From contig JBGARZ010000005.1 in the NCBI GenBank assembly GCA_044229975.1, forward strand, positions 493,551-557,550: a stretch of DNA of 64,000 nt, given 5' to 3'. Of this stretch, positions 12,742-63,711 are shown piece after piece (position 1 is the first letter of the stretch; each line of letters starts with the position of its first letter). A program made the position numbers and the translations under genes. The notes below the pieces were generated by a model. That model saw only the letters and a program-made list of their open reading frames with translations, was not told the DNA's origin and ran no database searches. Origin of the DNA: Polyangiales bacterium (GTDB lineage: Bacteria; Myxococcota_A; Polyangia; Polyangiales; Ga0077539).

Positions 12742-15488
12742 CCGCCCCCCTCCGCCCGCGTCGCCTCGCCCATCGCGGGGTCGTCGACGCCGTCGGCCTG
12801 CTCGTCGATCGCACCGACGAGGCCATCGCCCGCGCCCGCGTGCTCGCCCGCTGGTCCCCCGGCACCACCGTGTACGCGCTCGGCGCGCAGTACGCCGTGA
12901 TGTTCGGCACCGCGCGCCGGGTGCCCGCCGCGCCCTGCGAGGGAGCCGCCCTCGTGCGCTGCGCCGGAAGCGCCGCCGTCACCCTCTGCTCCACCGCTCC
13001 CCTCTCGCGCGCCGAGGTCGACCGCCTCGTCCAGGCGGGCGCCCGCGCCGACCACCTCGTCCTCGCCCGCGGCGGCTGCGCCGAGCCCGTCGCCCTCGAC
13101 CCCGCCAGCCTCGTCGACCCCTCCGCCTGGATCGACCTCGGACCGATGCTCCGCCTCGACGTCGCCTCGCTCGGCGCGCCTCCCGTCGTGGTCGTCGTCG
13201 CACCGTCCACCGACGCGCCCACGCTGCGCCCCGAGGGGACCGCCTCCATGGCCGCCGCCCTCTCCCGCGCGCTCGGAGCCCTCGTCGCACGCGGCGCCGT
13301 CACGCCCGAAGCAGCCGCGCTCGTCTCCGCCACGGTCACGGCCACCACCACGGTCGCGCCCACGCCACGGCCCGCCCGCGGCCTTTCAGCGTGGTGGGGC
13401 GCGCTCACCCGACTGCTCGATGACGACCCTGCGCCCGACCCCTCCGTGCGCGCGCTGCCGCCCGTCGAAGGGAGCGCTCCGACCGCCGCCGCACCCCCGC
13501 GAGGCTGGTGGTCGCGCCTCCGCGGATGGCTCCGCGAGAAGCTGGTGCGCTCGCAGGTGCAGCGCGCGCTCGGCGCCGATCAGGCCGGCTACCTCGATCG
13601 CATGATCGAGATGTTTCGCCAGGGCGACCTCGACGCGGCGCTGCGCCACGCGATTCCCCTCGGCGGCCCGCGCGCACCCGACGCGCCGCACCAACCGCTC
13701 ACCTGGGAGACACCGAGGGCGCGCGACGCGCTCGCGATCCAGCTCGCGCCGACGACGCACGCCACCGCCACCGGGGGCGACTCGCTGCACGCGCTGCTGC
13801 GGATGCTCTACCGCGACGCCGCGAAGGCGCTCGAAGCGGAGGGGCGCATCGACGAGGCCGCGTTCACGCTCGCCGAGCTCTTGCGCGAGCCCGGTGAGGC
13901 CGTCGCCCTCCTCGAACGCCACGGTCGCCTCCGCCTCGCCGCCGAGCTCGCCGAGACCGCCCGCCTCGCGCCCGAGCTCCGCACCCGCCAATGGCTGCTC
14001 GCGGGTGACCCGTCGCGCGCCCTGGCTGTCATGCGCCTGCATGGATCCTTCGCGGCGGTGCTCACGTCGCTGAAGGACAACCCCACCGGGGTCGACGCGC
14101 TGCGCACGCTCTGGTCGCGTCACCTCGCCTCGGTGGGCGACCTCGCCGCCGCGGTGCAGGTCGGCGCACCCGTCGCGGCGCTCGCCGACGAGGTCGACGC
14201 CTGGGGCAGCGCGCTCCTCGCCCTCGGCGGAACGGCCGCCCACCGCGTCCTCGCCCGCCGCTTGTCGCAGCACCCCGAGCGCTTCGCGGCGCTGCGCTCG
14301 CACCTCGATGCCATGGCCGACGCCGACGGCCCCGAAGCCCTCAGCCAACGGGCGAACTTCGCGGCGTTGGCCGTCGCCGAGCCGTGGAGCGAGGGCCTCG
14401 CGCTCGCCGCCCGCCTGCTCGTTCGCCCGCAGTGCCGCGACGCCGCGCGCACCAACGACCCGGCCGACCTCCAGGCGTTGCAGACGCTGCTCAACCTCGC
14501 GCGTGACCCGGTGTTGCGGGCGGACGTTCCGACGTGGCCCACCTTCGCGCGCATGCCGCTCGCATCGCGCCCGGAACCCTGGCGCCACACCATCGACGCC
14601 GCCGACACCGGACCCACCGCGCTGTACGACGCGGTCTTCGCGCGAGCGCAGGGGACGATGCTGCTGGCGCTGGGCGAGAGCGGCGCCTCGCTGCGCGACC
14701 GCGACGGCCGTGAGCGCGCCCGCTACGACGCCCCGACGCATGCGATCGTGTGGTCCGACCACGGCGACCGCGCGCTGCTGCTCGGGGCGCGGGGCGCGGG
14801 CTGGATGCTGTCGCGGCTCGACCTGCTCGCGGGCCGTTGCACCGCGTGGGGCGAGTGCACCCTCGACGCCTTCGCGAGCGACTACGACGGCGACGGCTGG
14901 CTCGTCGGGCAGCGCGGCGAGGTGCTGCTGCTCGACGCGACGGCCCCCGACCTGCGCGCGCTACCGGGCCCCGGTCGCGTCCCGCAGACCTCCCACACGC
15001 GGGTGCACTGCGTGGCCCGCGACGCGACGGGCGCGGCCGCGGTGAGGGCGCTCACGCAGGTCGAGCGCTGGCGGTGGCGGCTGCCGGGTTGGGCCCTGCT
15101 GGAGCGCCTGCTCGAAGCGCCGGGCGCGGTGGCGGTGGCGGTGGATGCGACGGGCGTGGTGGCGCGACGGCACGGGGCGGGGCTGTACTCCATCGACCGC
15201 GGGGCGTCGCAGCCGCTGGTCCAGTTTGCGTTCGAGGCGGAGACCACCGCGCGCGTCGCCCACCTCGCGCCGCCGTGGGTGGTGTTCGTGGAGAGCGTGG
15301 CGGGCGTGGTGACGGTGGCGCTGTGGCACCTGACGGCGAGCCGTCGGCTGGTGGAGCTTCGGCTGGAGGGCTCCGGTGCCGCCCACGGCCGGGTGGTCGA
15401 TGAAGTGCTCACGGTGTGCGACGACCGCGGAAGGGCGTTGGCCGTCGACCTGCGTTCGGGTACGCTGCTGCGCGACCTCAGGGTGTGA
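12738..15488 (+). CDS. bpX6 domain-containing protein (ternary system)
   Basis: GTG at 12738 (GTGA). LRPRRLAHRGVVDAVG...RARVLARWSPG; QAGYLDRMIEMFRQGDLDAALRHAIPLGG; EGRIDEAAFTLAELL; propeller-like C-terminus. Confidence 0.75.
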   Translation: MTAPLRPRRLAHRGVVDAVGLLVDRTDEAIARARVLARWSPGTTVYALGAQYAVMFGTARRVPAAPCEGAALVRCAGSAAVTLCSTAPLSRAEVDRLVQAGARADHLVLARGGCAEPVALDPASLVDPSAWIDLGPMLRLDVASLGAPPVVVVVAPSTDAPTLRPEGTASMAAALSRALGALVARGAVTPEAAALVSATVTATTTVAPTPRPARGLSAWWGALTRLLDDDPAPDPSVRALPPVEGSAPTAAAPPRGWWSRLRGWLREKLVRSQVQRALGADQAGYLDRMIEMFRQGDLDAALRHAIPLGGPRAPDAPHQPLTWETPRARDALAIQLAPTTHATATGGDSLHALLRMLYRDAAKALEAEGRIDEAAFTLAELLREPGEAVALLERHGRLRLAAELAETARLAPELRTRQWLLAGDPSRALAVMRLHGSFAAVLTSLKDNPTGVDALRTLWSRHLASVGDLAAAVQVGAPVAALADEVDAWGSALLALGGTAAHRVLARRLSQHPERFAALRSHLDAMADADGPEALSQRANFAALAVAEPWSEGLALAARLLVRPQCRDAARTNDPADLQALQTLLNLARDPVLRADVPTWPTFARMPLASRPEPWRHTIDAADTGPTALYDAVFARAQGTMLLALGESGASLRDRDGRERARYDAPTHAIVWSDHGDRALLLGARGAGWMLSRLDLLAGRCTAWGECTLDAFASDYDGDGWLVGQRGEVLLLDATAPDLRALPGPGRVPQTSHTRVHCVARDATGAAAVRALTQVERWRWRLPGWALLERLLEAPGAVAVAVDATGVVARRHGAGLYSIDRGASQPLVQFAFEAETTARVAHLAPPWVVFVESVAGVVTVALWHLTASRRLVELRLEGSGAAHGRVVDEVLTVCDDRGRALAVDLRSGTLLRDLRV

Positions 15489-50063: not shown

Positions 50064-50388
50064 GGCCCGCGGGAAGATACCGCGGCGTCCACTCGCGGCG
50101 CGCGCCACTCCGCTCGCCGGACGCGCCACCGCGAAGGCGACGGAGACGACGAGCACCAGCAAGCACGCGGCCTGAGGCCGGGCCGCCGCGCCCACCCGCC
50201 GTGACCCGTTCAGACATGTGGCTGACAGCCACGCGGATCATGCACCCCGGACCCGCGACAATCAGGCCCAACCTCGCACGGAGAGCTGATAGCGTGGCGG
50301 GCGACACGGCCGAGGTGTCTTCGACGCGCAGGTGTTCTGCGGGTGTCGGCGGCGTCGTCAAATCCTGTTTTGGGAGGAGTGTGGTTCG

Positions 50389-53300
50389 ATGAAAAGAAGA
50401 ATCTTGAGCTGGGGAGCGGCGCTGGCCGGGACGCTCCTGGTGCTGCCGGGTGATGCCTGGGCGGCGCGCTTCCTGTTCGTGTCCGACGTGGAGACGGACA
50501 CCAACATCGCCACGGTGCTACGCGCCGAGGGCCACTCCGTCGACGTCGTGATCAACGACTACAACAGCGGCACCACGAACAACGCCCGCCTCCAGGCGTC
50601 GCTCGCGGGCTACGACGGGGTGTTCTGGAGCGCCACTGGCAGCGGCAGCGGCTCGGTGCACACCGCCGCCACGATGACCAACCTCACCAACTATGTGAGC
50701 GGCGGCGGGCGCGTGTTCGTCACGGGCTACGACACCGTCGCGTCGCCGACCGACCCGCCGCTCATCGGCTTCCTCGGCGGCACCGGCAGCGTCGACGGGC
50801 CGGCCGCGCCCGGCGCCGCCGCCGCGGTCGTGTCGGACCTGACCACGGGCGTGGTCGACCTGCGCGGCGTGACGCCGACGGGGGGCTTCTTCGCCGACCT
50901 CGACGCGCTCACCGGCGTCGGCACCGACACGCAGATCATCGTGGCCAGCGCGGGCGCCCCGACCCAGGGGCAGTGGACCCTCCGCACCCTCGGCAGCGGC
51001 GTCATCGCGTACGTCTCCAACGGCGAAAACGGCACGATCACCACGCACCCCTCGTGGACCACCACGACCGCGGGCGGCGCGGGCGCGTACAACGGCGCGG
51101 TGCGCAACTTCGCGTTCCACGCCTCCGGCGCGCGGGTGCTCTTCGTCTCCGACTCGGCGACCGACACCAACATCCCCGGGGTGCTCCAGGCCGAGGGCCA
51201 CCGCGTCACGACGGTGATCAACGACTACAACAGCGGCACCACCAACAACGCGCGGCTCCAGGGCTCGCTCACGGGCTTCGACGTGGTGGTGTGGAGCGCG
51301 ACGGGCTCGGGCTCCGGGTCGACGCACGCCGCCGCGACGATGACCAGCCTCACCGCCTACGTGAACGGCGGCGGGTACGTCTTCGTCACGGGTTACGACT
51401 CCATCGCGTCGCCGACCGACCCGCCGCTCATCGGCTTCCTCGGCGGCACCGGCTCCATCGACACCGGCTCGGCGCCGGGCCCCGTCGCCAACGTCGTCAA
51501 CGACCTCACCACGGGCCGCGTCGACCTGCGCGGCGTGACGCCGACGGGCCAGTACGGCGACATGGACAGCCTCACCGGGCTCGGGACTGACACCACGATC
51601 GTCAGCCAGGACGGCACCACCACGGGCGCGGGTCAGTGGACGCTGCGCACCCTCGGCAGCGGCCGCATCGCGTATGTCTCGCAGGGCGAGATCGGCCCGA
51701 CCTCGGCGCTGGCGTCGTGGACCACCACGACCGCGGGCGGCGCGGGCGCGTACAACGGCGCGCTGCGCAACTTCGTCTTCCACGCCTCCGGGGCGCGGGT
51801 GCTCTTCGTCTCCGACTCGGCGACCGACACCAACATCCCCGACGTGCTGCGCGGCGACGGCCACCGCGTGACGGTGGTGCTCAACGACTTCACCGGGAGC
51901 GCCAACACCCGCCTCGCGGGCTCGCTCGCGGGCGTCGACGTCGTGGTGTGGAGCTCGACCGGCGGCGGCGTTGGCGACGTGGCCCCGGCCGCGACGATCA
52001 CCAACCTGACCAACTTCGTCAACGCCGGCGGGCGCGTGTTCGTCACGGGCTACGACAGCATCGCGTCGCCGACCGACGCGCCGCTCATCGGCTTCCTCGG
52101 CGGCACCGGGAGCGTCGACACCGGCTCGCGCCCCGGCGCGATCGTCTCCATCCCGAACGACCTCAACGTGGGCCGCGTCGACCTGCGCGGCGTGACCCCG
52201 AGCAACGCGCCCGGGGACCTCGACAGCCTCACCGGCTACGGCGCCGGCGTCACCGTGGTGACCCCGGTGGCGGGCTCGACCACCGAGGCGCAGTGGCTGC
52301 TGCGCTCGCTCGGCGCGGGGCGCATCGCGTACGTCTCCAACGGCGACAGCGGCCCGACCAGCGCGAACGCCAACTGGGCCATCGCCGGGGGCGGCCCGAC
52401 CGGGGCCTTCAACGGCGCCGTGCGCAACTTCGTCCACAACTACAACCGCACGACGGCCACGGCCGGCGCGGCGAACGGCACCGCCTGCTCGACCGCGAGC
52501 GAGTGCGGCTCGAGCTTCTGCGTCGACGGCGTGTGCTGCAACGCGGCCTGCGCCGGCGGCACCGCCGATTGCCAGGCGTGCGCCACCGCGGCGGGCGCCG
52601 CGGTCAACGGAACCTGCGGCGCCGTCTCGTCGGGCCGCGTCTGCCGCGCCTCGGCGGGCTCGTGCGACGTGGCCGAGACCTGCAACGGCACCGCGACCGC
52701 GTGCCCGGCCGACGGCTTCGCGCCGACCACCACGGCCTGCCGCGCCTCGGCGGGTCCTTGCGACGTCGCGGAGAACTGCTCGGGCCTGGCGGCGACCTGC
52801 CCGGCGGATGCGTTCGCGCCGACCACCACGGCGTGCCGCGCGTCGGCGGGTCCGTGCGACATCGCGGAGTCCTGCACCGGCATGGCGGCGGCCTGCCCGG
52901 GCGACGGCTTCGCGCCGTCCTCCACCGTCTGCCGCGCAGCGGCGACGGGCGGCTGCGACGTGGCGGAGTCGTGCAGCGGGTCGAGCTCGGCGTGTCCGTC
53001 GGACGTCTTCGCGCCGGCCACCACGACCTGCCGCGCGTCGGCGGGACCGTGCGACCTGGCCGAGGCCTGCCCGGGCACCGGCCCGGCGTGCCCGTCGGAC
53101 GCCTTCGCGGCCTCGTCGGTGGTGTGCCGCGCCTCCACGGGCATGTGCGACACGGCCGAGTCGTGCACCGGCGCGGGGGTGACCTGCCCCTCCGACGCGT
53201 TCGTGGCGAACGGGTCGTCGTGCGGCGACTCGCTCATGTGCAACGGCGCGGAGACCTGCCAGAGCGGCGCCTGCGCGGCCGGGACCGCGCTCTCCTGCGA

Positions 53301-53808
53301 CGACGGTGACCCGTGCACCACCGACTCGTGCTCCGAGCCCTCGGGGTGCAGCCGCGTGGCGATCCCGGGTTGCGGCGCGACCGACGCCGGCTCCGACGCG
53401 GGCGAGCTCGCCGACGCTGCGGACGCCTCAGACGCCGACGACGGCTCGACCGACGTCGCGGACGCCGGTGACGACGCCGCGGGGGCCGACGCTGGCGACG
53501 ACGCCGCGGTGGCCGACGCCGCGGTGACCGACGCCGCGGTGGCCGACGCCGCGGTAACCGACGTGGCTGCGAACGACGTGGCTGCGAACGACGCGGCCGC
53601 GAACGACGCGGCTGCGAACGACGCGGCTGCGAACGACGCGGCGGTTGCGGGCGACGCTGGTGACGACGGCGGCCTGACCGAGACGCCGACCGGGTCCTCC
53701 GGCTGCGGGTGCGCGGTGCCCGGCCGCACGAACGCGCGCGGCCCCGGCCTCGTCGCGCTGGCGGGCCTCGTCGCGCTCCTGCGCGCGCGACGTCGCCGCG
53801 CGAGCTGA
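50389..53808 (+). CDS. Large surface protein: three ~221-aa repeats, six disintegrin-like Cys repeats, acidic linker, MYXO-CTERM
   Basis: GGAGG upstream; signal peptide ending AWA; repeats start at 50464, 51130 and 51793; CRASAGPCD.AE.C.G....CP.D x6; GCGCAVPG-TM-RRRR. Confidence 0.9.
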   Translation: MKRRILSWGAALAGTLLVLPGDAWAARFLFVSDVETDTNIATVLRAEGHSVDVVINDYNSGTTNNARLQASLAGYDGVFWSATGSGSGSVHTAATMTNLTNYVSGGGRVFVTGYDTVASPTDPPLIGFLGGTGSVDGPAAPGAAAAVVSDLTTGVVDLRGVTPTGGFFADLDALTGVGTDTQIIVASAGAPTQGQWTLRTLGSGVIAYVSNGENGTITTHPSWTTTTAGGAGAYNGAVRNFAFHASGARVLFVSDSATDTNIPGVLQAEGHRVTTVINDYNSGTTNNARLQGSLTGFDVVVWSATGSGSGSTHAAATMTSLTAYVNGGGYVFVTGYDSIASPTDPPLIGFLGGTGSIDTGSAPGPVANVVNDLTTGRVDLRGVTPTGQYGDMDSLTGLGTDTTIVSQDGTTTGAGQWTLRTLGSGRIAYVSQGEIGPTSALASWTTTTAGGAGAYNGALRNFVFHASGARVLFVSDSATDTNIPDVLRGDGHRVTVVLNDFTGSANTRLAGSLAGVDVVVWSSTGGGVGDVAPAATITNLTNFVNAGGRVFVTGYDSIASPTDAPLIGFLGGTGSVDTGSRPGAIVSIPNDLNVGRVDLRGVTPSNAPGDLDSLTGYGAGVTVVTPVAGSTTEAQWLLRSLGAGRIAYVSNGDSGPTSANANWAIAGGGPTGAFNGAVRNFVHNYNRTTATAGAANGTACSTASECGSSFCVDGVCCNAACAGGTADCQACATAAGAAVNGTCGAVSSGRVCRASAGSCDVAETCNGTATACPADGFAPTTTACRASAGPCDVAENCSGLAATCPADAFAPTTTACRASAGPCDIAESCTGMAAACPGDGFAPSSTVCRAAATGGCDVAESCSGSSSACPSDVFAPATTTCRASAGPCDLAEACPGTGPACPSDAFAASSVVCRASTGMCDTAESCTGAGVTCPSDAFVANGSSCGDSLMCNGAETCQSGACAAGTALSCDDGDPCTTDSCSEPSGCSRVAIPGCGATDAGSDAGELADAADASDADDGSTDVADAGDDAAGADAGDDAAVADAAVTDAAVADAAVTDVAANDVAANDAAANDAAANDAAANDAAVAGDAGDDGGLTETPTGSSGCGCAVPGRTNARGPGLVALAGLVALLRARRRRAS
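53500..53649 (+). repeat. Intragenic 15-bp tandem repeat x10 (DAAVA/DVAAN/DAAAN)
   Basis: GACGCCGCGGTGGCC and GACGCGGCTGCGAAC units. Confidence 0.8.
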
Positions 53809-53900: not shown

Positions 53901-56159
53901 CTACCCGCCGTGTCGCCCGCGCCGTCGCCCGCCCGATGCGGCTCCGCGCGACGGCTCCGCCTGGCCGATGCGCAGCTCCATCAGGTTGTCGCCCGACCAC
54001 CGCCCCACGATCGGCGTGTCGCCCTCGCGCCACTCCACCACCGCGTAGATCCCCCTCTCCATCGCTGGCCTCGCCGGAACCGCCGCCCCCGGCTGACCCG
54101 TCGCCTGCACCAGCAGCCGCCGCAGCCCAGCGTCCGAGTGCCGCAGCGTGCGCGCCCCGGCCGTCGCGCCCACCACGTAGAGCCCCACGCTCCGCCCGTC
54201 CGAGGCCGCGGTGTACACCGACACGCCCGCGAGCTCCGCCCAGCCCGACGCCGACGTCGACCCCGCCGGGCGCTCCAACAGGTCGTCGACCGCCGCCACC
54301 TCCACGCCCAACAACGGAACATGCGTCCGCTGCTCCGTCGCCCACGCCGTCGCCGCCGTCGCTGCCGTCGTCATCTCCGGGTCGTCGGTCGGCGCGCCAA
54401 CCTCGGTCGCCTGCGCCGAGAGCTGCCGCAGCGCGCGCACCGTCACCGACGCATCAGGCCCCACCGCCGTCCGCGCGTTGAGCGCCGCCAGCAGCGTCGC
54501 GCGCACCGTCGCCCACGCGGCGTCGCGCGCCGGTGACCGGTGCGCCGCCCGCGCGGAGCGCAGCGCCCCGTAGCGGCACACGTCCGTCGTACACGCCTCG
54601 CGCCGCAGGTCGTACGCCGCCGCCCGAAGCTCCGCGGCGTCCGCGTTGTTGGCCAGCGCCATCGTCCATCGATCGAGCTTCGCCAGCATCCCGTCAGCAT
54701 CGCGCGCCGCCAGCGATGCCCGCACCTCGTCGAGCCGCTGCCGCTCGGCGCTGTTGCGGGCCTGCGCCGCCATCGATCCGCGGCGGACGCTCACCGCGTC
54801 GAGCCGCGCCAGCCGCGCGTCACCCGTCAGCCGCCGCGCGTCGGCGAGGTCGATCTCGTCGAGCACCGCCGTGGCCCGCGGCGACGGCGCCGTCTCGTAG
54901 AGCGCTTGCGCGACCACTCGCGCCCGTGCGTAGTCCTGCCGACCCAGCGCCGTCCGCGCCTCGGCCTCGCTCGGACGCACCAGCGCCCACGACACCGGGC
55001 ACGCCAGCAGCGCCACCGCCGCCAGCGCGAGCCCCGTCTTCTCGCCTCCCCGCAGCGGCCACCGTGGACCCGACGCGCGCCACGTCCGCAGCACGCCGCC
55101 CACCGCCATCGTCGCGCCGACGAAGCCCAGCAGCGCCATCCACAGCAGCCAGCGGTTGACCGACACGAAGTACACCGGGACGCGAACCCACGCGTACGCG
55201 TACGCAAACCACGCGACCAGGGACACCAGCCCCAGGACCACCCAGAGCGTGCGCCGACGCTTGAGAGGACGCAGCGCCTCGGGGGTCGCCGCGCCCGCGA
55301 GCTGCTGGCCGGAGAGGGCGACGGTGCCGACGGTTCCGCAGAGTTCGTAGGACACGTCGCGGCGGCGCACCCCGAAGCGCGCGTACTGCTGCGCGGTCAC
55401 GCGCTCGCTCTGCGGATTGAGCATCGGCTGCCACTGGAGCGCGGGATCACCGGGCCCCAGTTGCTGCGCGGTGAGCATCGTGTGGCTGTCGAACACCGCC
55501 TGCACGGTGAAGGGCGCGAGGTCGGGCGGGGTCAGCATCCGCTCGGCGCGCAGCGCGGAGTACGCGACCAGCACGGGACTATCGACGGAGAAGCGAACCT
55601 TGGTGGTGACGGTCTCGTCCCATCCCCACCAGAGCAGCACCTGCCCGTTGCCCTGGCAGGGTCCGCATGTGACGCGCCCTGAGCTGCCGCACGAGGCGCA
55701 GGCCACGGTACCCTTGGTGCGGCACGTGGGGCACTGAATCACCCGGCTCGACTTCTTGTAGTAGCGGGTGATGTGACCGTCGCCGCCGCACTCGCGGCAG
55801 CGCGACCGACCGCTGCCGCCACAATTGCCGCACGCCGTCTGTCGGGAGCCGTTGCAGGTGGGGCAGTTGGCAGGGTGTTCGGTGCGCGCGCGGAGGTCGG
55901 CGAGCGTTCCGGCGAAGGGGTCGATGCTGCGAGGGTCGGTGGCTCGCCCAGCGCTGCGACCGGCGGGACCCTGCCGCTGCACGAGGTCGCGGCGCGTGAC
56001 CGTCGTCGCGAGTCGCGTGATGACCTCGTCGCGCTCGACCACCGCGGTGATCTGCTCCTCCAGTCGTGCGGGCGCGCCCGACGTCGTGGATGCCCAGCGG
56101 CGAAACGCCTCCCGAACCTCTCCCGCCGCGTTGCCGCTCGGATCGTACGCCCCGCTCAT
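53901..56159 (-). CDS. DnaJ-type CxxCxGxG zinc-finger membrane protein without a J domain
   Basis: CPTCNGS, CGNCGGSG, CRECGGDG, CPTCRTKG, CASCGSSG, CGPCQGNG; three TM helices; helical C-terminal region. Start could be 56165. Confidence 0.8.
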   Translation of the reverse strand: MSGAYDPSGNAAGEVREAFRRWASTTSGAPARLEEQITAVVERDEVITRLATTVTRRDLVQRQGPAGRSAGRATDPRSIDPFAGTLADLRARTEHPANCPTCNGSRQTACGNCGGSGRSRCRECGGDGHITRYYKKSSRVIQCPTCRTKGTVACASCGSSGRVTCGPCQGNGQVLLWWGWDETVTTKVRFSVDSPVLVAYSALRAERMLTPPDLAPFTVQAVFDSHTMLTAQQLGPGDPALQWQPMLNPQSERVTAQQYARFGVRRRDVSYELCGTVGTVALSGQQLAGAATPEALRPLKRRRTLWVVLGLVSLVAWFAYAYAWVRVPVYFVSVNRWLLWMALLGFVGATMAVGGVLRTWRASGPRWPLRGGEKTGLALAAVALLACPVSWALVRPSEAEARTALGRQDYARARVVAQALYETAPSPRATAVLDEIDLADARRLTGDARLARLDAVSVRRGSMAAQARNSAERQRLDEVRASLAARDADGMLAKLDRWTMALANNADAAELRAAAYDLRREACTTDVCRYGALRSARAAHRSPARDAAWATVRATLLAALNARTAVGPDASVTVRALRQLSAQATEVGAPTDDPEMTTAATAATAWATEQRTHVPLLGVEVAAVDDLLERPAGSTSASGWAELAGVSVYTAASDGRSVGLYVVGATAGARTLRHSDAGLRRLLVQATGQPGAAVPARPAMERGIYAVVEWREGDTPIVGRWSGDNLMELRIGQAEPSRGAASGGRRRGRHGG

Positions 56160-56258
56160 CACCATGACGCCGCGGACGGTAGTGTATCGCGCGCACCACG
56201 GTCCATAGCCGTCCGCGCCCTTGCTTTGTGGCCGTCGCGCGGAGAGCATCGCCGTCCC

Positions 56259-56783
56259 GTGAGGCCCCGACCACCCTCCCCTCTCGTCCTCTTGAGCACT
56301 GCGGTGCTCGCCGTGCTCGAAGGCGCCACCGCCTCCGGGGCGCCGCTGCCCGTCGCGCTCCAGCGGGAGATTCGCAAGACCCGCGACGAGCGCGATGACG
56401 GCGCCGAGCTGCTGCTCGTTCCGCCCGCCCCCGACTCCGCCGCGCTCTTCCCGGCGCACCGGTCGCACCGCTCCCACAGCTCCCACAGCTCGGGCAGCGG
56501 CCGACGCTCGCACTACTCCGGCGGCGGTGGCTACGAGCCCGCCGCCGCGCCCGCGCCTCCTCCCCCTCCGCGTCGCCTGCGCCCCGCCAACGTCTCCTTC
56601 GTGGCCTACCCCGGCGGCAACATCTTCGTCGACGGGCGGCCCGCCGGGCGCGACACCACCCGCGTGATGCGCCTCGCCGCGGGCGACCACGTCGTGCGCG
56701 TCGAAAACGCCTTCGTCGGCGACACCGAGCAGACCATCAGCCTGAGTGAGGGCGAGACGGGCATCGTCGCGATTCGATGGTGA
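56259..56783 (+). CDS. hxsA: His-Xaa-Ser repeat protein HxsA with signal-like N-terminus and C-terminal PEGA-like domain
   Basis: AHRSHRSHSSHSSGSGRRSHYS encoded at ~56454-56519; directly upstream of hxsD-hxsB; GTG start with GGAGAG upstream (start inferred). Confidence 0.85.
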   Translation: MRPRPPSPLVLLSTAVLAVLEGATASGAPLPVALQREIRKTRDERDDGAELLLVPPAPDSAALFPAHRSHRSHSSHSSGSGRRSHYSGGGGYEPAAAPAPPPPPRRLRPANVSFVAYPGGNIFVDGRPAGRDTTRVMRLAAGDHVVRVENAFVGDTEQTISLSEGETGIVAIRW

Positions 56784-57109
56784 GCCCCGCGCTGGCCTAC
56801 GAGGGCGGCGCCGTCTCCTTCGACCTCGACCTCCGCGTCTACCGACTCGCCGCCGTGCAGAAGACCGCCTACCGACTCGCGCGCCGCTGCACCGCCGTGC
56901 TCGGCGAGCTCCGCGGCGAGACGCTCCCCGTCACGCTGACCTTCGCCGCTGACACCAGCGAGCCCGAAGCCCTCGCCGCCACCCGCCACTTCTTCCAGGA
57001 GCTTCTCGATCAAGAACTCCGCGAGAAGGTCGCCGCCGAGACCGCTTCACTGCGCCCGCTGTTGCTCGCGCTGGCCTTCTCCCGCACCGGCCTCGCCCCG
57101 CGCTCCTGA
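56777..57109 (+). CDS. hxsD: His-Xaa-Ser system protein HxsD
   Basis: LDLRVYRLAAVQKTAY...FFQELLDQELREKVAAETASLRPLLLALAFS; located between hxsA and hxsB. Confidence 0.88.
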   Translation: MVSPALAYEGGAVSFDLDLRVYRLAAVQKTAYRLARRCTAVLGELRGETLPVTLTFAADTSEPEALAATRHFFQELLDQELREKVAAETASLRPLLLALAFSRTGLAPRS

Positions 57110-57116
57110 CGCCGCC

Positions 57117-58556
57117 ATGTTTGCGCCGAAGGAAGCGTTCGCGCCGCCGGGGAGCTACCGCCTGTTGCCGCTGCGCTTCGACCGCCTCGACGAGCGCCGC
57201 TACGTCGTCACCAACGACGTCGGCGAGTACGTCCTGCTCGACCGCACCGAGCTCGATGACCTCATCCACCACCGGCTCGACCCGCGCAGCACGACCTACC
57301 GCGCGCTCAAGTCGCGGCACCTGCTCTACGACGCCGATGACTCGTCCGCGTTCGACCTCCTCGCGCTGAAGTACCGCACCCGCGCCGAACCCATCGCCGC
57401 CTTCACGGGCCTGCACATCTTCGTGGTGACGCTGCGCTGCGACCACTCGTGCCAGTACTGCCAGGTGTCGCGTCGACCCGAGGACGAAGGCGACTTCGAC
57501 CTGAGCGCCGAGCACGCCGCGAAGGCCGTGGAGATGGTGTTTCGCAGCCCGAGCGAGCAGCTCAAGATCGAGTTTCAGGGCGGCGAGGCGCTGCTCAACA
57601 TGCCGCGGGTGGCGCAGGTGGTGGAGGCCGTCAACGAGCGCAACCGCAGCGACAAGCGCGACGTGCAGTTCGTGTTGGCGACCAACCTATCGCGCCTCGA
57701 CGACAACGTGCTCGCCTTCTGTCGGCGGCACCGCGTCCACCTCTCGACCTCCATCGACGGGCCGGCCGACCTCCACGACACGCAGCGCCCCACCCGCGGC
57801 GGTGGCAGCCACGCGCGGACCGTCGCCGCCATCGAGCGGGCCCGCGCCGTCCTTGGGCCCGACAGCGTGTCGGCGCTGATGACCACCACACCGGCCGCCC
57901 TCGACCGCGTGGAGGCCATCGTCGACGAGTATGTGCGATTGGGCTTTCACTCGATCTTCCTGCGCAACCTGAGCCCCTACGGCTTCGCGGCGAAGAGCCT
58001 CGTGCGTCGCTACGGCGTCGCCGACTGGCTGCGCTTCTACGAGCGCGGCCTCGCCCATGTGCTGAAGGTCAACGCGCGCGGCCACGCGATGGTCGAGGAC
58101 TTCGCGGCGATTCTTCTCCGCAAGATGGTCTCGCCGCTGGGGTCGAGCTACGTCGACCTGCAATCGCCCGCGGGCATCGGCATCGGGGCGTTGGTCTACA
58201 ACTACGACGGCGCGGTGTACGCGTCCGACGAGGGTCGGATGCTCGCGGAGATGAAGGACGAGACCTTCCGACTGGGCCACCTCGACGAGGACTCCTACGA
58301 GGCGATGATGACCTCGCCCGCGCTGCTCGGACCGCTCACCGAAAGTCTCCTGGAGAGCGCGCCGGGGTGCTCGGACTGCGCGTTTCTGCCGTACTGCGGG
58401 GCCGACCCGGTGTACCACCGCGCGACCCAGGGCGACGCGCTCGGACACAAAGCGTTTAGCGACTTCTGCGCGAAGCAGATGGGCATCACGCGGAGGCTCA
58501 TCGCGCTGCTCGAAGACGACCCAGCGGCGCGCGACGTGATGCTCGGGTGGGTGTGA
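57117..58556 (+). CDS. hxsB: His-Xaa-Ser system radical SAM maturase HxsB (SPASM-type tail)
   Basis: YRLLPLRF; LHIFVVTLRCDHSCQYCQVSR; KIEFQGGE; LSPYGFA; YVDLQSPAGIG; YASDEGRML; CSDCAFLPYCGADP. Confidence 0.93.
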   Translation: MFAPKEAFAPPGSYRLLPLRFDRLDERRYVVTNDVGEYVLLDRTELDDLIHHRLDPRSTTYRALKSRHLLYDADDSSAFDLLALKYRTRAEPIAAFTGLHIFVVTLRCDHSCQYCQVSRRPEDEGDFDLSAEHAAKAVEMVFRSPSEQLKIEFQGGEALLNMPRVAQVVEAVNERNRSDKRDVQFVLATNLSRLDDNVLAFCRRHRVHLSTSIDGPADLHDTQRPTRGGGSHARTVAAIERARAVLGPDSVSALMTTTPAALDRVEAIVDEYVRLGFHSIFLRNLSPYGFAAKSLVRRYGVADWLRFYERGLAHVLKVNARGHAMVEDFAAILLRKMVSPLGSSYVDLQSPAGIGIGALVYNYDGAVYASDEGRMLAEMKDETFRLGHLDEDSYEAMMTSPALLGPLTESLLESAPGCSDCAFLPYCGADPVYHRATQGDALGHKAFSDFCAKQMGITRRLIALLEDDPAARDVMLGWV

Positions 58557-58600: not shown

Positions 58601-58978
58601 TGTGATGTGCAGTGGGATGAGGGGGGCTTTCGGTCGGAGAGCGCCCACTGCGCGGTTGCGGACGGCCCGCGGACGGGCCTGCAACCGCTGAAGTGGGAGC
58701 CTGGAGCTGGGCGTCCCGCCTCCGCGGGACTTCCTGGCGGAGCGCCGAGCGCGCTGCGCTCGACGAGTGGAGGTAGGGGCTCGCTGAACGGCTTGGAGAG
58801 GACCTCCTTCACCCCCTCGACGGTCGCTCCAGCGACCGGCGCGCATGCAGGAAGTCCCGCGCAGGCGGGACGCCCAGCTCCAGGCTCCCACTTCAGCGGT
58901 TGCAGGCCCGCCCGCGGGCCGTCCGCAACCGCGCAGTGGGCGCTCTCCAAGCGCACTCACGCACAGAGGCACATCACA
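58601..58978. repeat. Long palindromic element between hxsB and hxsC
   Basis: Arms of ~100 bp from 58636 (GGAGAGCGCCCACTGCGCGG...) mirrored to 58948; outer TGTGATGTGC/GCACATCACA pair at 58601 and 58969. Confidence 0.88.
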
Positions 58979-59067: not shown

Positions 59068-60219
59068 ATGCTCCTGAAGCTCTCCGCGCGCGGGCTCACC
59101 CGGCTCTCCGAGACCGCGGGCCGTCCCCTCCTCGGGCGCCTCGCCGATCGCTCATCCAGCACCGCGCCCGCCGAGGAGATGCTGCTCGTCGCGGCGGGCG
59201 ACCACGACCCGTTGCCCGACGGCTATCGCGCCTACCTCCTCCGCGAGCGGCGCGATGTCGATGGGCGTCGCGAGTGCTTCCTGCTCGGCTCCGACCACGC
59301 CTACCTCGGCGCGGGTGACGTGGTGCGCGTCGACCCGCCGTCGGGCTCGCTGACGGCGCTCTTCCGCGCCAACTCCCCCAACAACACCTTCCTCATCACC
59401 GAGCGCTGCGACCACCTCTGCGTGATGTGCTCGCAGCCGCCCATCGACCGCGACGACTCCTGGCTCGTCGACGAGCTCCTGCACGCCGTTCCACTCATCC
59501 GCGCCGAACCCGCCGAGGCGGGGATCTCCGGCGGCGAACCCACGCTGCTCGGCGATCGCTTCGTGGCGCTGCTCACCCACCTGCGCGACTACCTCCCGAC
59601 CACGGCGGTGCACGTCCTCACCAACGGTCGACGCTTCGCCGACGAGGGCTTCACCCGCGCGGTCGCTGACATCGATCACCCCGACCTGATGCTCGGCATC
59701 CCCCTCTACGCCGACCTCCCCGAGGAGCACGACTACGTGGTGCAGTCGCGCGGCGCCTTCGACGAGACCGTGCGCGGCATCGTCGCCGCCAAACGCGCGG
59801 GCCTCGCCGTCGAGCTGCGCTTCGTCATCCACCGCGAGACCGTCGACCACCTCGCTGATTTCGCCCGCTTCGTCGCGCGCAACCTCACCTTCGTCGACCA
59901 CGTCGCGCTCATGGGCCTGGAGCCCGTCGGGTACGCGAAGGCCAACCTCGAGCGGCTCTGGATCGACCCCGCCGACTACCAGCGCCCGCTCGTCGAAGCG
60001 ACGCTCGCGCTGCGGCGCGCGGGCATGACGGTGTCGCTCTACAACCACCAGCTCTGCGTGCTCGACCGACGGCTGCACCCCTTCGCCCGCAAGAGCATCT
60101 CCGACTGGAAGAACCGCTACTTCGACGAGTGCCAGGGCTGCTCCGCGATGGAGGAGTGCGGCGGGTTCTTCGCGTCGTCGGCGGTGCGCCGCAGTCGCGC
60201 CATCGCCCCGTTGGGTTGA
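59068..60219 (+). CDS. hxsC: His-Xaa-Ser system radical SAM maturase HxsC
   Basis: LFRANSPNNTFLITERCDHLCVMCSQPP; GISGGEPTL; LTNGR; HDYVVQ; MGLE..GYA; YNHQLC; SISDWKN; CQGC.....CGGFF. Confidence 0.93.
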   Translation: MLLKLSARGLTRLSETAGRPLLGRLADRSSSTAPAEEMLLVAAGDHDPLPDGYRAYLLRERRDVDGRRECFLLGSDHAYLGAGDVVRVDPPSGSLTALFRANSPNNTFLITERCDHLCVMCSQPPIDRDDSWLVDELLHAVPLIRAEPAEAGISGGEPTLLGDRFVALLTHLRDYLPTTAVHVLTNGRRFADEGFTRAVADIDHPDLMLGIPLYADLPEEHDYVVQSRGAFDETVRGIVAAKRAGLAVELRFVIHRETVDHLADFARFVARNLTFVDHVALMGLEPVGYAKANLERLWIDPADYQRPLVEATLALRRAGMTVSLYNHQLCVLDRRLHPFARKSISDWKNRYFDECQGCSAMEECGGFFASSAVRRSRAIAPLG

Positions 60220-60305: not shown

Positions 60306-61682
60306 ATGCTGAAGCCTGGGACCACCTTCGCGGCCTACTCCATCGTGCGCGAGCTCGGCCGCGGCGGGATGGGCGAGGTCTACGAAGCCGAGCACACGGG
60401 CCTCGGCAAGCGCGTCGCCCTCAAGGTGATGAACCACCTCGACGACGACGACACGGCGCGGCAGCGGTTTGTCCTCGAAGGCCGCGCGGCGGCGCTCATC
60501 CGCCACGAGAACGTCGTCGACGTCACCGACGTGGGCGTCCACGACGGCGTCCCCTTCCTCGTCATGGAACTCCTCGTCGGCGAGTCCCTCGCCCAGCACC
60601 TGGACCGCGAGGGCCCGCTCGACGCGCGCCGCATCGCCGACCTCATGGTCCCGGTCGCCAGCGCCCTCGCGGCCGCCCACGACGCGGGCGTGATCCACCG
60701 CGACATCAAGCCCGAGAACATCTTCCTCTCCCGCACCCGCCGCGGCGCCATCGTCCCCAAGGTGGTCGACTTCGGCGTCTCGCGCGTCGGCGCCATCACC
60801 GACAGCGAAGCCCAGCGCCTCACCCACTCCGTCAACCTCATCGGGACGCCCCGCTACCTCGCGCCCGAGTCCGTCCTCGGCGCCCGCAACGCCGTCGCCG
60901 CCAGCGACCAGTACTCCCTCGGCGTCGTCCTCTACGAGTGCGCCACGGGCACCCACCCCTTCCGCGAGGAGTCCCTCTTCTCGCTGCTGTGGGCGATCCT
61001 CCAGGCGACCTTTCCGCGGCCGCTCGACGCGTGGCTCGGCGTCGACCCGGCGCTCGAAACCGTCATCCTCCGCGCCATGCAGCGCGACCCCGCCGACCGC
61101 TTCCCCACCGTGCGCGCCCTCGCCGAGGCGCTGCTCCCCATGGCCAGCGAGGAGACTCGCGCCCACTGGCGTGACGAGCCCGCCCCGGCCTCCCTCCTCG
61201 TGTCCTCCTTCGCGCCCGAACTCGCCCGCGCCACGCCGGACGATGTCACCCGTGACGTTCCTGCCGTCATCACCCGCGAAGCGCTCCCGACCCCGATGCC
61301 CGACAGCCTCCCTGCGCTTGTTCCGTCCGTCCTCGTCCCGCCCGCACGCCCGTCCCGCACCCTGCGCGTCGTCGGCCTCGCCGGAGCCGTCGCGCTCCTC
61401 TGCCTCGCGACCTTCCTCGCGGGCCGCGCCACACCCCCGGCCCACGCGCCTCGACCCGTCGCGCCCACGGTCACCGCGCCGCCGCTCGCCGCGCTCACCG
61501 TCGTACCCGCGACTCCGCCTCCTGCGCCCACGCTCCACGACGCGCCCACGCCGCGCCCCGCGCCCGTCATCGCGCGCGCCACACCCCGCGCAGTGCGACC
61601 GACCGCGCGACCCGTCGCACCCGTCACCCCCACGCCGACGCCCGCTCCCAACGATCCGTGGTCTCTTCGCACCCACTTCTGA
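60306..61682 (+). CDS. Hanks-type Ser/Thr protein kinase with TM segment and Pro-rich tail
   Basis: LGRGGMGEVY; VALKVM; HRDIKPENI; KVVDFGVSR; GTPRYLAPE; DQYSLG. Confidence 0.95.
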   Translation: MLKPGTTFAAYSIVRELGRGGMGEVYEAEHTGLGKRVALKVMNHLDDDDTARQRFVLEGRAAALIRHENVVDVTDVGVHDGVPFLVMELLVGESLAQHLDREGPLDARRIADLMVPVASALAAAHDAGVIHRDIKPENIFLSRTRRGAIVPKVVDFGVSRVGAITDSEAQRLTHSVNLIGTPRYLAPESVLGARNAVAASDQYSLGVVLYECATGTHPFREESLFSLLWAILQATFPRPLDAWLGVDPALETVILRAMQRDPADRFPTVRALAEALLPMASEETRAHWRDEPAPASLLVSSFAPELARATPDDVTRDVPAVITREALPTPMPDSLPALVPSVLVPPARPSRTLRVVGLAGAVALLCLATFLAGRATPPAHAPRPVAPTVTAPPLAALTVVPATPPPAPTLHDAPTPRPAPVIARATPRAVRPTARPVAPVTPTPTPAPNDPWSLRTHF

Positions 61683-62596
61683 CCGTCGGCCTGCTCGCGC
61701 TGGCGTCGGCCTTCGCGCCTCGCCTCGCCGTCGCGCAGACCGCGACCGACCCCGCCGTTCTTGCCGCGGCGCAGGCCCATTTCGAGCAGGGCCTCGCGCT
61801 CGCCCGGCAACAGCGCTGGGCCGAGGCCCTCGCCGCCTTCGAGCGCTCGCGCGCCACCACCGACCGCCCCAGCACCGCCTTCAACGCGGCCCTCGCGCTG
61901 CAACACCTCGGGCGCGTGATCGAGGCCCGACGCGCCCTGGAGCAGTGCCTCGCGATGCCCGACGCCGCCGCCGACCCGGAGCTCATCCGCGACGCGACGG
62001 CCGTGCTCGCGACCGTGCGCGCCGCCATCGCCACGGTGACCCTCAGCGTCGCCCCCGAGCGCGCCGAGCTCCGCGTCGACGGAACGCCCAACAGCCTCCT
62101 CGGTCCGTCGCGCTCCCTCGAACTCGACCCCGGCTCCCACGCCCTCAACGCCTCGGCGCCCGGCTTCGTCGCGCAAGACCTCACGCTCCGCCTCTCGCCC
62201 GGTGACCGCGAGTCGCGTTCCATCACCCTCTCTCCACAGCCCGCGCGCCTCTCCATCGTCGCGATGCCCTCCGGCGCCACGGTGCTCATCGACGGCACCC
62301 TCGTCGGCCGCGGAACCGCCGCCTGGGAAGGCCCACCGCGCACGCTCGGCGTCCGCATCTCCGCCGCGGGTCACGCCACCACGGAGCGCAGCGTCGTCCT
62401 CGAACCCGGCGAGCACTCGCACCTCGCCATCACCCTCACCCGCGAAGCCCGCCCCCTCACGGCCAACCCCTGGCTCTGGATCGGCGTGGGCACTGGGGTC
62501 GCCGCCGTCGTCACGGTCGTCGCGCTGTTGCTCATCCACCCGACCGCCGATGCCGACGGCGGCACCGCCAACCGCGTGCTCTCGGGCGGGCCGTGA
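61658..62596 (+). CDS. Signal peptide + TPR + two PEGA domains + C-terminal TM
   Basis: AQAHFEQG..L....RWAEAL..F; AELRVDG...LDPGSH.L.ASAPGF; PSGATVLIDG; PWLWIGVG. Confidence 0.88.
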   Translation: MVSSHPLLTVGLLALASAFAPRLAVAQTATDPAVLAAAQAHFEQGLALARQQRWAEALAAFERSRATTDRPSTAFNAALALQHLGRVIEARRALEQCLAMPDAAADPELIRDATAVLATVRAAIATVTLSVAPERAELRVDGTPNSLLGPSRSLELDPGSHALNASAPGFVAQDLTLRLSPGDRESRSITLSPQPARLSIVAMPSGATVLIDGTLVGRGTAAWEGPPRTLGVRISAAGHATTERSVVLEPGEHSHLAITLTREARPLTANPWLWIGVGTGVAAVVTVVALLLIHPTADADGGTANRVLSGGP

Positions 62597-63711
62597 CGCG
62601 CGCGTCGCTCCTCCTCGCGATGGCCGTCGCGCTCGGCTGCACCACCGATCCCGCGACGCAGCTCCTCGTCGCCGTGGACACGGACCTCAACCCTCTCCTC
62701 CGCGAGGTCGAGGTCGAGGTGCAGGACGCGCGCGGCGTCACCACCTTCGACCGCGCCGTCTTCCGCGTCGGCCCGGCCGGCGCCACCCCAACGCTCCCGC
62801 TCCCCTTCACCTTCGGCATCGCCCCGCACACCGCCGACGCCAGCGACGTGCGCGTCGTGGTCCGCGGTCGCTACGCCGACGACCCGTCCCGCGTACGCGT
62901 CACGGCCCGCGCCATCACGGGCTTCCGTCCCAACCGCAAGCTCGTGCTGCCGATGTTCTTGTCGCGGGCGTGCGTCGACCGCGACGACTGCGCGGGCGAC
63001 ACCACCTGCGATGCGGGCCTGTGCGCCCCCCTCGCGCGCATCAACCCCGCCCTCCTCGCCGACGTCACCGACGCCCCGTACACCCCCGCGCCGCGCCCCG
63101 ACGCCGGGTCCGCCGACGTCGATGCGGGAGGGTGCGCGTTTGGTCTCACGACGTGCGGCGCCCGCTGCGTCGACCTGCGCACCGACGTCTTCCACTGCGG
63201 CGCCTGCGGCAACGGATGCGCCGACGGCAACCGCTGCTTCGAGGGGCGATGCACCCCCGACGGAACCTGCATCCCCCACCTCCCCGCCGGCGTCACCGAG
63301 TGCTTCGCCGACTACACCACCGGCGTGTGCACGGGAGCGCCGGCGATGGTCCGCTGCGGTCGGATGCCCACCGTCTGCACCACGGCCCGCGACGGTGATC
63401 CCGCGAGGATCTACTCGGGTCGATACCAGGGTCACGTGCTGACGTTTCCCCGCCCGGCGCGCGGTCTGCGCTTCTCCTTCGGCGGCATCGGCGGCGCCTA
63501 CTGCCACGTCCGTCTCATGGACGCGCGCGGCGCTTCGCTGCTGGAGCCCGCGCCCCGCACGCGCTGCGACCACCCCACCGACCCGACGCCCGGCGTCGAC
63601 GTGGACTTCACCGCGCCCGAGGAGTCCGCGGGCGTGACGCGGCTGTGGCTCAACCACATCAGCTCGACCGACTGCTACCTCAGCGCGATCGAAGTGACCT
63701 ACGACCCGTAG
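62593..63711 (+). CDS. Lipoprotein with a Cys-rich Stig1-like repeat
   Basis: ALGC lipobox; TQLLVAVDTD; LPFTFGI; CVDLRTDVFHCGACGNGC; GTGA coupling. Confidence 0.85.
   Translation: MTRASLLLAMAVALGCTTDPATQLLVAVDTDLNPLLREVEVEVQDARGVTTFDRAVFRVGPAGATPTLPLPFTFGIAPHTADASDVRVVVRGRYADDPSRVRVTARAITGFRPNRKLVLPMFLSRACVDRDDCAGDTTCDAGLCAPLARINPALLADVTDAPYTPAPRPDAGSADVDAGGCAFGLTTCGARCVDLRTDVFHCGACGNGCADGNRCFEGRCTPDGTCIPHLPAGVTECFADYTTGVCTGAPAMVRCGRMPTVCTTARDGDPARIYSGRYQGHVLTFPRPARGLRFSFGGIGGAYCHVRLMDARGASLLEPAPRTRCDHPTDPTPGVDVDFTAPEESAGVTRLWLNHISSTDCYLSAIEVTYDP

Follow-up and report, generated by a model that had tools for sequence, protein, structure and literature searches.

In the 64,000-nucleotide stretch of myxobacterial DNA analysed here (the window), the gene set of an HXS system is present in a form in which the C-terminal domain of HxsA has been exchanged for a PEGA domain and a fifth gene, predicting an inner-membrane protein (the partner), lies next to hxsA. 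This linkage recurs in related loci, and in other genomes the partner is naturally fused to the same PEGA subtype. Our tentative interpretation is that the locus is a five-gene myxobacterial HXS variant in which PEGA docks HxsA on the neighbouring membrane protein, with blocking of phage DNA entry as the likely outcome. The genes and the element between them are as follows.

53901..56165, minus strand: partner, predicted inner-membrane protein of 754 aa, oriented divergently from hxsA with 93 bp in between
56259..56783, plus strand: hxsA variant encoding 174 aa and ending in a PEGA domain (ORF translation, profile matches, homologue alignment)
56777..57109, plus strand: hxsD, overlapping the hxsA stop (TIGR03976, 60.2 > 50)
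57117..58556, plus strand: hxsB, radical SAM maturase with both Cys clusters (motifs at 108 and 418; TIGR03978, 576.7 > 370)
58636..58953, no strand assigned: dispersed inverted-repeat element of ∼315 bp between hxsB and hxsC (122-nt arms, 92% complementary)
59068..60219, plus strand: hxsC, radical SAM maturase with both Cys clusters (motifs at 114 and 355; TIGR03977, 386.8 > 267.9)

Of 113 coliphages, 110 are inhibited by the HXS of Escherichia coli, which delays the entry of their DNA (Li et al. 2026, Nat Commun, PMC13128918), and the premise of the initial annotation that the role of His-Xaa-Ser (HxS) proteins is uncharacterised is outdated. According to that paper, the tested HxsA is composed of a signal peptide (residues 1–22), five HxS units and a peptidoglycan-binding domain, all of which are needed. 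HxsB, HxsC and HxsD are necessary for its N-terminal processing, and a +8 Da modification of the exported, periplasmic protein maps to SHRSS. The paper describes HxsA as aggregation-prone and its export as non-canonical, and leaves open how it is exported and where it meets phage DNA. In the census reported there, 99.7% of HXS systems are from Pseudomonadota, 99.6% have the order D-B-C-A and >99.8% consist of four proteins. The window locus shares with this system the two radical SAM enzymes and HxsD, as well as an HxsA in which a signal-like leader and a pro-region precede five HxS units and a C-terminal module, but it differs in the anchor (PEGA, the only Pfam match here, in place of a peptidoglycan-binding domain), in gene number (a fifth conserved membrane-protein gene), in order and host (A-D-B-C in Myxococcota) and in motif (SHxSG rather than SHRSS). 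The terms "PEGA" and "Myxococc" are absent from the main text and two searched supplements of PMC13128918, the source data of which may list such proteins, and no description of an HxsA-PEGA protein or a myxobacterial HXS was found in the literature outside subscription papers. The hxsA-PEGA loci extend HXS to Myxococcota.

hxsA is located 5′ of hxsD, hxsB and hxsC, giving the operon order A-D-B-C. The database gene call (P0003) predicts 159 aa from a start 15 codons downstream, but alignments with close homologues begin at residue 1 of the 174-aa form, which supports the GTG at 56259 as the start codon. A homology search returned 71 matches at E<=1e-3, self included, and those that are named belong to Myxococcota, which points to a host in that phylum, probably of the Polyangiales; with that number of matches hxsA-PEGA is not a chance ORF. 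The product falls below the cut-offs of all HxsA models, scoring 39.8 bits (121.65 required, array region only) with the TIGR03979 equivalog, 29.8 bits (48 required) with HxsA2 NF038296 and 22 bits (65 required) with HxsA3 NF038309, and the profile check proposed in the initial annotation placed it above the cut-off of Pfam PEGA only.

As a reference for the maturation genes an enterobacterial set was used, the copy on a Klebsiella plasmid, in which the Cys numbering equals that of the tested E. coli system. HxsB and HxsC are 32% and 39% identical to this set, and BLAST gives no match between the two HxsD proteins. A variant LLNDYxLRE-type motif is present in HxsD and the LYW motif is not recognisable. 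A distant blastn search of E. coli genomes with the Aeromonas hxs operon found nothing. In a tree of 29 HxsB proteins, hand-chosen from loci in this study, the 12 from PEGA loci form one group (100/100) on the A/A2 branch, apart from the A4 group. The HxsA2 (NF038296) loci on this branch, referred to as anchor-less, are like the window locus in the A-D-B-C order and the layout of the leader, and they hold the nearest relatives of HxsB (51–57% identity). However, HxsA2 ends 3–4 residues after the array, whereas HxsA-PEGA continues into a linker and the PEGA domain. A search of one A2 genome (G258) did not reveal the partner. Two anchor-less A2-type loci carry a thermonuclease-family gene near the hxsC end (L120:6570-7106, minus strand, and L122:6128-6844, plus strand). 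It is very probable that HxsA-PEGA is a substrate of HxsB and HxsC.

hxsB and hxsC are only a few bases apart in most related loci but are separated by the inverted-repeat element in the window. About a dozen further copies of this element (70–95% identity) are scattered over 7 other contigs of the genome, and it is probably not part of the HXS system. The GC content at the locus shows no clear anomaly.

All ORF features given in the initial annotation, namely a hydrophobic N-terminus, an HxS core, a Pro linker and a beta domain, are present in the translation. The product can be divided as follows.

56259..56333, plus strand: signal-like peptide, aa 1–25, possible cleavage after ATA (hydropathy and motif; layout as in enterobacterial HxsA)
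56334..56456, plus strand: pro-region between leader and array, aa 26–66, containing a charged stretch and a hydrophobic LLL motif (conserved in the alignment)
56457..56522, plus strand: HxS array, aa 67–88, four units in direct succession, then a fifth after a 6-residue spacer
56523..56579, plus strand: Gly/Ala/Pro linker, aa 89–107 (translation, AlphaFold model)
56580..56780, plus strand: PEGA-type 7-stranded beta-sandwich, aa 108–174, of the subtype common to the partner fusions

In the leader, the most hydrophobic 12-residue window begins at residue 9 (2.81) and ATA is found at residues 23–25, an assignment from hydropathy and motif only. The AlphaFold model contains two leader helices, a low-confidence His/Ser array and a confident C-terminal beta domain. 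The alignment used for this model and for family comparisons has 63 rows, the query and 62 of the 71 matches; the self match, two long rows and the six weakest were left out. Over the 56 full-length rows the array is preceded by a median of 66 residues. A signal-like stretch and pro-region of ∼57–80 residues also precede the array in HxsA of Klebsiella, Aeromonas, Nostoc, Methylobacter, Hymenobacter and Paraburkholderia, and the anchor-less A2 forms likewise have a hydrophobic signal-like stretch and a pro-region. The layout is therefore shared with enterobacterial, Aeromonas, Nostoc and A2 forms, and the special leader fusion that had been proposed falls away. The related suggestion that the product is folded and exported, instead of being a diffusible RiPP, agrees with the behaviour reported for the HxsA family (PMC13128918), and export of HxsA-PEGA is probable.

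The array carries a net charge of +4 plus 5 His. Across the alignment the first HxS run has 4–7 units (five in 34 of 63 rows), and the residue immediately after it is Gly in 58 of 63. Another H-[YFSRM]-S unit lies beyond a spacer of 1–7 residues in 22 of 63 rows, and this spacer is 6 residues long in only 5 of these. As the array restarts after a spacer of variable length in these family members, the GSG-RRS segment is a spacer and says little about which residues are modified, contrary to the initial annotation, and its reading as an informative substitution or a swapped repeat pair was rejected. The exact SHRSS pentamer is absent from HxsA-PEGA, which has SHSSG and SHYSG in its place; an Aeromonas HxsA that passes TIGR03979 likewise ends in SHYSG.

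The PEGA-like domain noted initially is borne out by Pfam and by the structural model. PF08308 matches residues 118–167 at 21.9 bits (gathering cut-off 20.8, E 1.7e-4), a marginal pass, and AlphaFold predicts a 7-stranded beta domain at residues 110–173 (core pLDDT 95–98), a transthyretin-like sandwich as in the PEGA domain (described in PMC2447325). The top fold match is 6hif_Y (Z 8.2, rmsd 2.3, 69 aligned), with SleC 9h68_A (Z 7.2, 7% identity) and 9k1u_B (Z 6.3, rmsd 2.9, 65 aligned) further down, and beyond these are many transthyretin-like domains. Two of the matches are small chains bound to other proteins, the Kustc1130 assembly factor (6hif_Y; PMC6469936) and a chain of the RtkS-PpkA complex (9k1u; PMC6082577), where chain B was taken only as part of the complex from its size and the title of the entry. 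Both are from unrelated systems with 22–25% identity to the HxsA domain, and although such bound chains are in keeping with docking, a shared fold does not show a function.

With a profile built from the HxsA PEGA domain alone, full HxS-bearing members score 86–116 bits and the PEGA domains of fused partners 48–77 bits, while TP-type HxsA PEGAs score 26–39 bits, other PEGAs <=37 bits and other domains of this genome <=19 bits. The subtype has GG and G-x-D-x-T where the PEGA domains compared on this profile have mostly PW and TP, and it has an invariant terminal Trp. Among the sequences compared, it is otherwise seen only in the partner fusions. Little functional literature on PEGA domains was found, and the hxsA-PEGA loci provide a defined candidate partner for one.

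C-terminal modules of HxsA were surveyed with a profile search of 1.84 billion representatives, and 45 proteins that matched via leader and array were picked from the 150 matches listed. All 45 have an HxS run. Their tails include PG_binding_1 (11), Sel1 repeats (7), a different PEGA type (6) and pentapeptide repeats (1), and 20 have no informative Pfam tail; Pfam PG_binding_1 was also found in the Aeromonas and Hymenobacter HxsA controls. On these sequences the HxsA tail is an exchangeable module, and current HxsA models mostly miss these tails. As HxsA tails vary so widely, the PEGA swap alone is of modest novelty. One set of HxsA proteins with the same myxobacterial leader mostly has a MYXO-CTERM-like tail (P0101, P0109, P0113, P0118, P0124, P0131 and P0147); two of the seven with such a Cys-hydrophobic-Arg-like tail pass the MYXO-CTERM model and one just misses it. 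MYXO-CTERM is reported to direct anchoring at the cell surface (PMC11980579), and tails of this kind would place the modified array there.

The more novel element of the locus is the co-conserved membrane-protein gene. Genes were called with a codon-usage script at 13 loci (187 genes) and compared all-against-all with BLAST, which revealed one conserved non-hxs neighbour, the 754-aa ORF at 53901–56165 on the minus strand. A co-conserved membrane protein with natural fusions to the PEGA subtype of HxsA was found in no paper. Three regions were distinguished in the predicted protein.

55638..55874, minus strand: zinc finger of the DnaJ type, about aa 98–176, containing six CxxC motifs, predicted cytoplasmic (motif list, weak Foldseek matches)
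54978..55241, minus strand: three predicted transmembrane helices, aa 309–327, 340–358 and 378–396 (hydropathy scan, model helices)
53946..54977, minus strand: predicted periplasmic TPR-like helical stack and C-terminal alpha/beta domain, aa 397–740 (fold search)

We infer an N-in/C-out topology. No Pfam, NCBIfam or PADLOC model matched the partner in either the 692-aa or the 754-aa form. The AF2 model has a mean pLDDT of 88, and Foldseek gave no match at E<=1e-3; the zinc finger weakly matches those of DnaJ and BSD2 (E 0.03–0.1), and TPR co-chaperones are matched at VIA Z 8–9, which is middling for helical repeats. Atlas searches with the partner homologue P0229 gave leads only, to SSUH2-like and DnaJ-finger clusters (best feature score 0.75; TM 0.23–0.30 by query, over the N-terminal part). 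A promoter and terminator scan of the 93-bp divergent gap returned nothing useful.

The partner adjoins hxsA-PEGA in 16 of 17 full loci, including two near copies (G480 and G492), and the 17th (L125) is on too short a contig. It is divergent from A-D-B-C in 6 of the 16, among them the window, and directly behind hxsA in 9, which are of the D-B-C-A type, though two show only C-A at a contig edge. In the remaining locus (L001) it is directly ahead of hxsA and its stop overlaps the hxsA start. Among 301 genomes of the order, the HxsA profile matched in 10 (9 full-length, 1 PEGA only, in a strict first look), the partner in 11 and HxsC in 10, and all 9 genomes with a full hxsA-PEGA are also positive for the partner and hxsC. 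The 16 linked loci are not independent events, as they share one origin and the 12 HxsB proteins form a single clade, and the linkage could be inherited from one capture event. Over its full length, periplasmic part included, the partner has been retained beside hxsA in three gene orders and in several lineages of myxobacteria, at 28–46% identity.

This conservation bears on an alternative in which PEGA needs no partner to anchor HxsA in the envelope or to oligomerise, and the partner either acts only as a chaperone for maturation or export through its DnaJ-type zinc finger, or has simply been carried along since the capture, with the locus still antiphage. Other HxsA proteins bear unrelated PEGA types and other tails, the fold is common to carbohydrate-binding and pilin domains (Z 5–6), and a chaperone could ease the handling of a protein that is reported as aggregation-prone and non-canonically exported (PMC13128918). 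Mere hitchhiking is hard to accept, however, because the partner has stayed full length beside hxsA through three gene orders, and we regard this alternative as rather unlikely.

Two partner-positive genomes of the order, G571 and G573, have a different arrangement in which the partner is fused to a Pro linker and the same PEGA subtype, both placed directly after the alpha/beta domain. hxsC was not found in either genome (95% and 96% complete). Five more partner-PEGA fusions were detected among the representatives, one nearly identical to the G573 protein. The fusions, which match no family, are L115:7872-10391 (plus strand), L128:9042-10340 (minus strand), P0121, P0125, P0150, P0151 and P0186. 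In a quick-search, unrooted tree a single branch (SH-aLRT 96) separates the fused partners from the split ones; as the tree is unrooted, it does not show which form came first. A likely origin is that an ancestral gene for a partner-PEGA protein lost its 3′-end, with the linker and PEGA, to the leader and array of hxsA, while the remainder of that gene would have stayed with the hxs operon. In G110, the tenth genome with HxsC, hxsB and hxsC of the PEGA-locus type are on a 2,965-bp contig, and no hxsA, hxsD or partner was found.

The fusions suggest that the partner has a role of its own, since G571 and G573 encode it joined to PEGA and yielded no hxsC. This would suit a sensor-effector arrangement: once matured, HxsA would detect the ejection channel or the DNA coming in, and its PEGA would set off the membrane partner. 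The partner would be the real effector or a signal relay and might, for example, disrupt the membrane or act via its cytoplasmic zinc finger; the partner-PEGA fusions would then be the device without its radical-SAM sensor. The partner is predicted to span the membrane with large domains on both sides, and RtkS, a fold neighbour of PEGA, is reported as a periplasmic activator of a membrane kinase (PMC6082577). Against it, family models and fold searches of the partner revealed neither a catalytic nor a toxin domain, and the tested HXS works with four genes and blocks entry (PMC13128918), so that this arrangement seems improbable. A related possibility, doubtful though somewhat less so, is that a His/Ser patch matured by radical SAM enzymes was grafted onto the PEGA domain of a transmembrane receptor, giving a two-part envelope device in which periplasmic HxsA would grip incoming phage DNA and PEGA would dock on, or switch, the DnaJ-zinc-finger/TPR membrane protein that relays or executes the response. 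If true, this HXS would possess a membrane component of its own, and the partner-PEGA fusions that stand alone would represent a new family of envelope sensors.

In the docking interpretation that we prefer, the first steps are carried over from E. coli: HxsB, HxsC and HxsD would process the leader and modify a terminal S-H-x-S unit, and HxsA would then be exported. The linkage and the fusions suggest that PEGA would bind the periplasmic part of the partner, and direct contact between the two is marginally favoured. PEGA, tethered to the partner in the fused form, may still meet it when carried by HxsA. The partner would replace peptidoglycan as the anchor of HxsA, and the basic His/Ser/Arg array would sit against the inner membrane on its outer face, a point that phage DNA has to pass. 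Phage DNA normally crosses the periplasm within a protein channel. As a natural variant that lacks a wall anchor and has a co-conserved membrane protein, the locus bears on whether the C-terminal domain serves HxsA as an address and nothing more, and on whether HXS acts at the inner-membrane face.

A defence role is suggested by homology to E. coli HXS and by the patchy distribution of hxsA-PEGA, which is present in 3 of 401 genomes of the phylum and was not found in 8 other genomes of the genus. An antiphage function is reasonably likely. Several points stand against the antiphage-docking interpretation. HxsB and HxsC are distant from the enterobacterial set, the tested effector needed a peptidoglycan-binding domain that is absent here (PMC13128918), the exact SHRSS is lacking and defence neighbours are scarce. 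PADLOC was run on 123 proteins (119 neighbours from the 187 called genes and the four hxs genes of the window, with no background rate) and found clear defence neighbours at 1 of 13 loci (type I RM and PDC-S14) and weak ones at 2 of 13, with no defence gene among the genes scanned in the window. Kinase matches to PD-T4-6 models were deemed non-specific, and a defence-island setting is not supported.

The scarcity of defence neighbours, the large sequence distance to the tested HXS, the position of the nearest HxsB relatives in A2 loci outside the tested type and a scan of viral contigs in which no relative was found would all fit a different role, in which the exported, modified His/Ser patch serves the envelope through metal binding, cross-linking or protection from competitors or predators. 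We consider this unlikely. The sole tested member is antiphage and requires each HxS unit (PMC13128918), and the patchy presence suits an accessory system. Nothing in the locus indicates metal, and the metal-binding idea raised in the initial annotation gained no support beyond the richness in His.

HxsB scores above the cut-off in 141 of 401 genomes of the phylum, and in 29 of 29 in one family. Sixty of these regions were examined, of which 57 belong to a distant group (34–40% identity) and only 3 to the canonical branch, and the proposal that HXS is common in this phylum was rejected on that basis. The distant group, with HCS(HGS)nW peptides in 20 regions and no HxS ORF in the examined stretch of the other 37, looks vertically kept rather than mobile. 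The window genome carries a second Hxs locus (L045, G000 contig C30, about 124.6–127 kb). Its HxsA4 (12643–13419, minus strand; NF038313, 245.5 > 55) has 64 His-Xaa-Ser units, almost all HGS, the longest among 20, and adjoins a distant hxsB (13552–14922, minus strand), and several radical SAM genes of HxsC-like type lie no further than about 30 kb away.

Other variations were seen at some loci. The partner gene is tandemly duplicated behind hxsA in L002 (5721–7928 and 8371–10524, plus strand), and a protein of ∼900 aa that matches no family follows the partner gene in L046:13667-16330, L111:1466-4183 and L114:337-3120. A further group of loci (L129, G591:C9; L107; L109) shows fragmented or partial genes. 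G591 has a second, fragmented copy of the whole operon, and the main partner gene of this genome appears to be split. The match to HxsC is partial in G480, whereas HxsC is whole in the near-identical G492.

Downstream of hxsC, a Ser/Thr kinase, a TPR-PEGA protein and a Cys-rich protein are encoded in a row at 60306–63711 (plus strand). A link between hxsA-PEGA and the TPR-PEGA/kinase genes (60306–62596) was considered and rejected, as the other PEGA-like domains of this genome score <=19 bits and the genes are not conserved beside other loci. On the other side of the locus, 50332–53808 (plus strand) predicts an 1158-aa protein with three repeats of ∼220 aa, disintegrin-like Cys repeats and a MYXO-CTERM tail.
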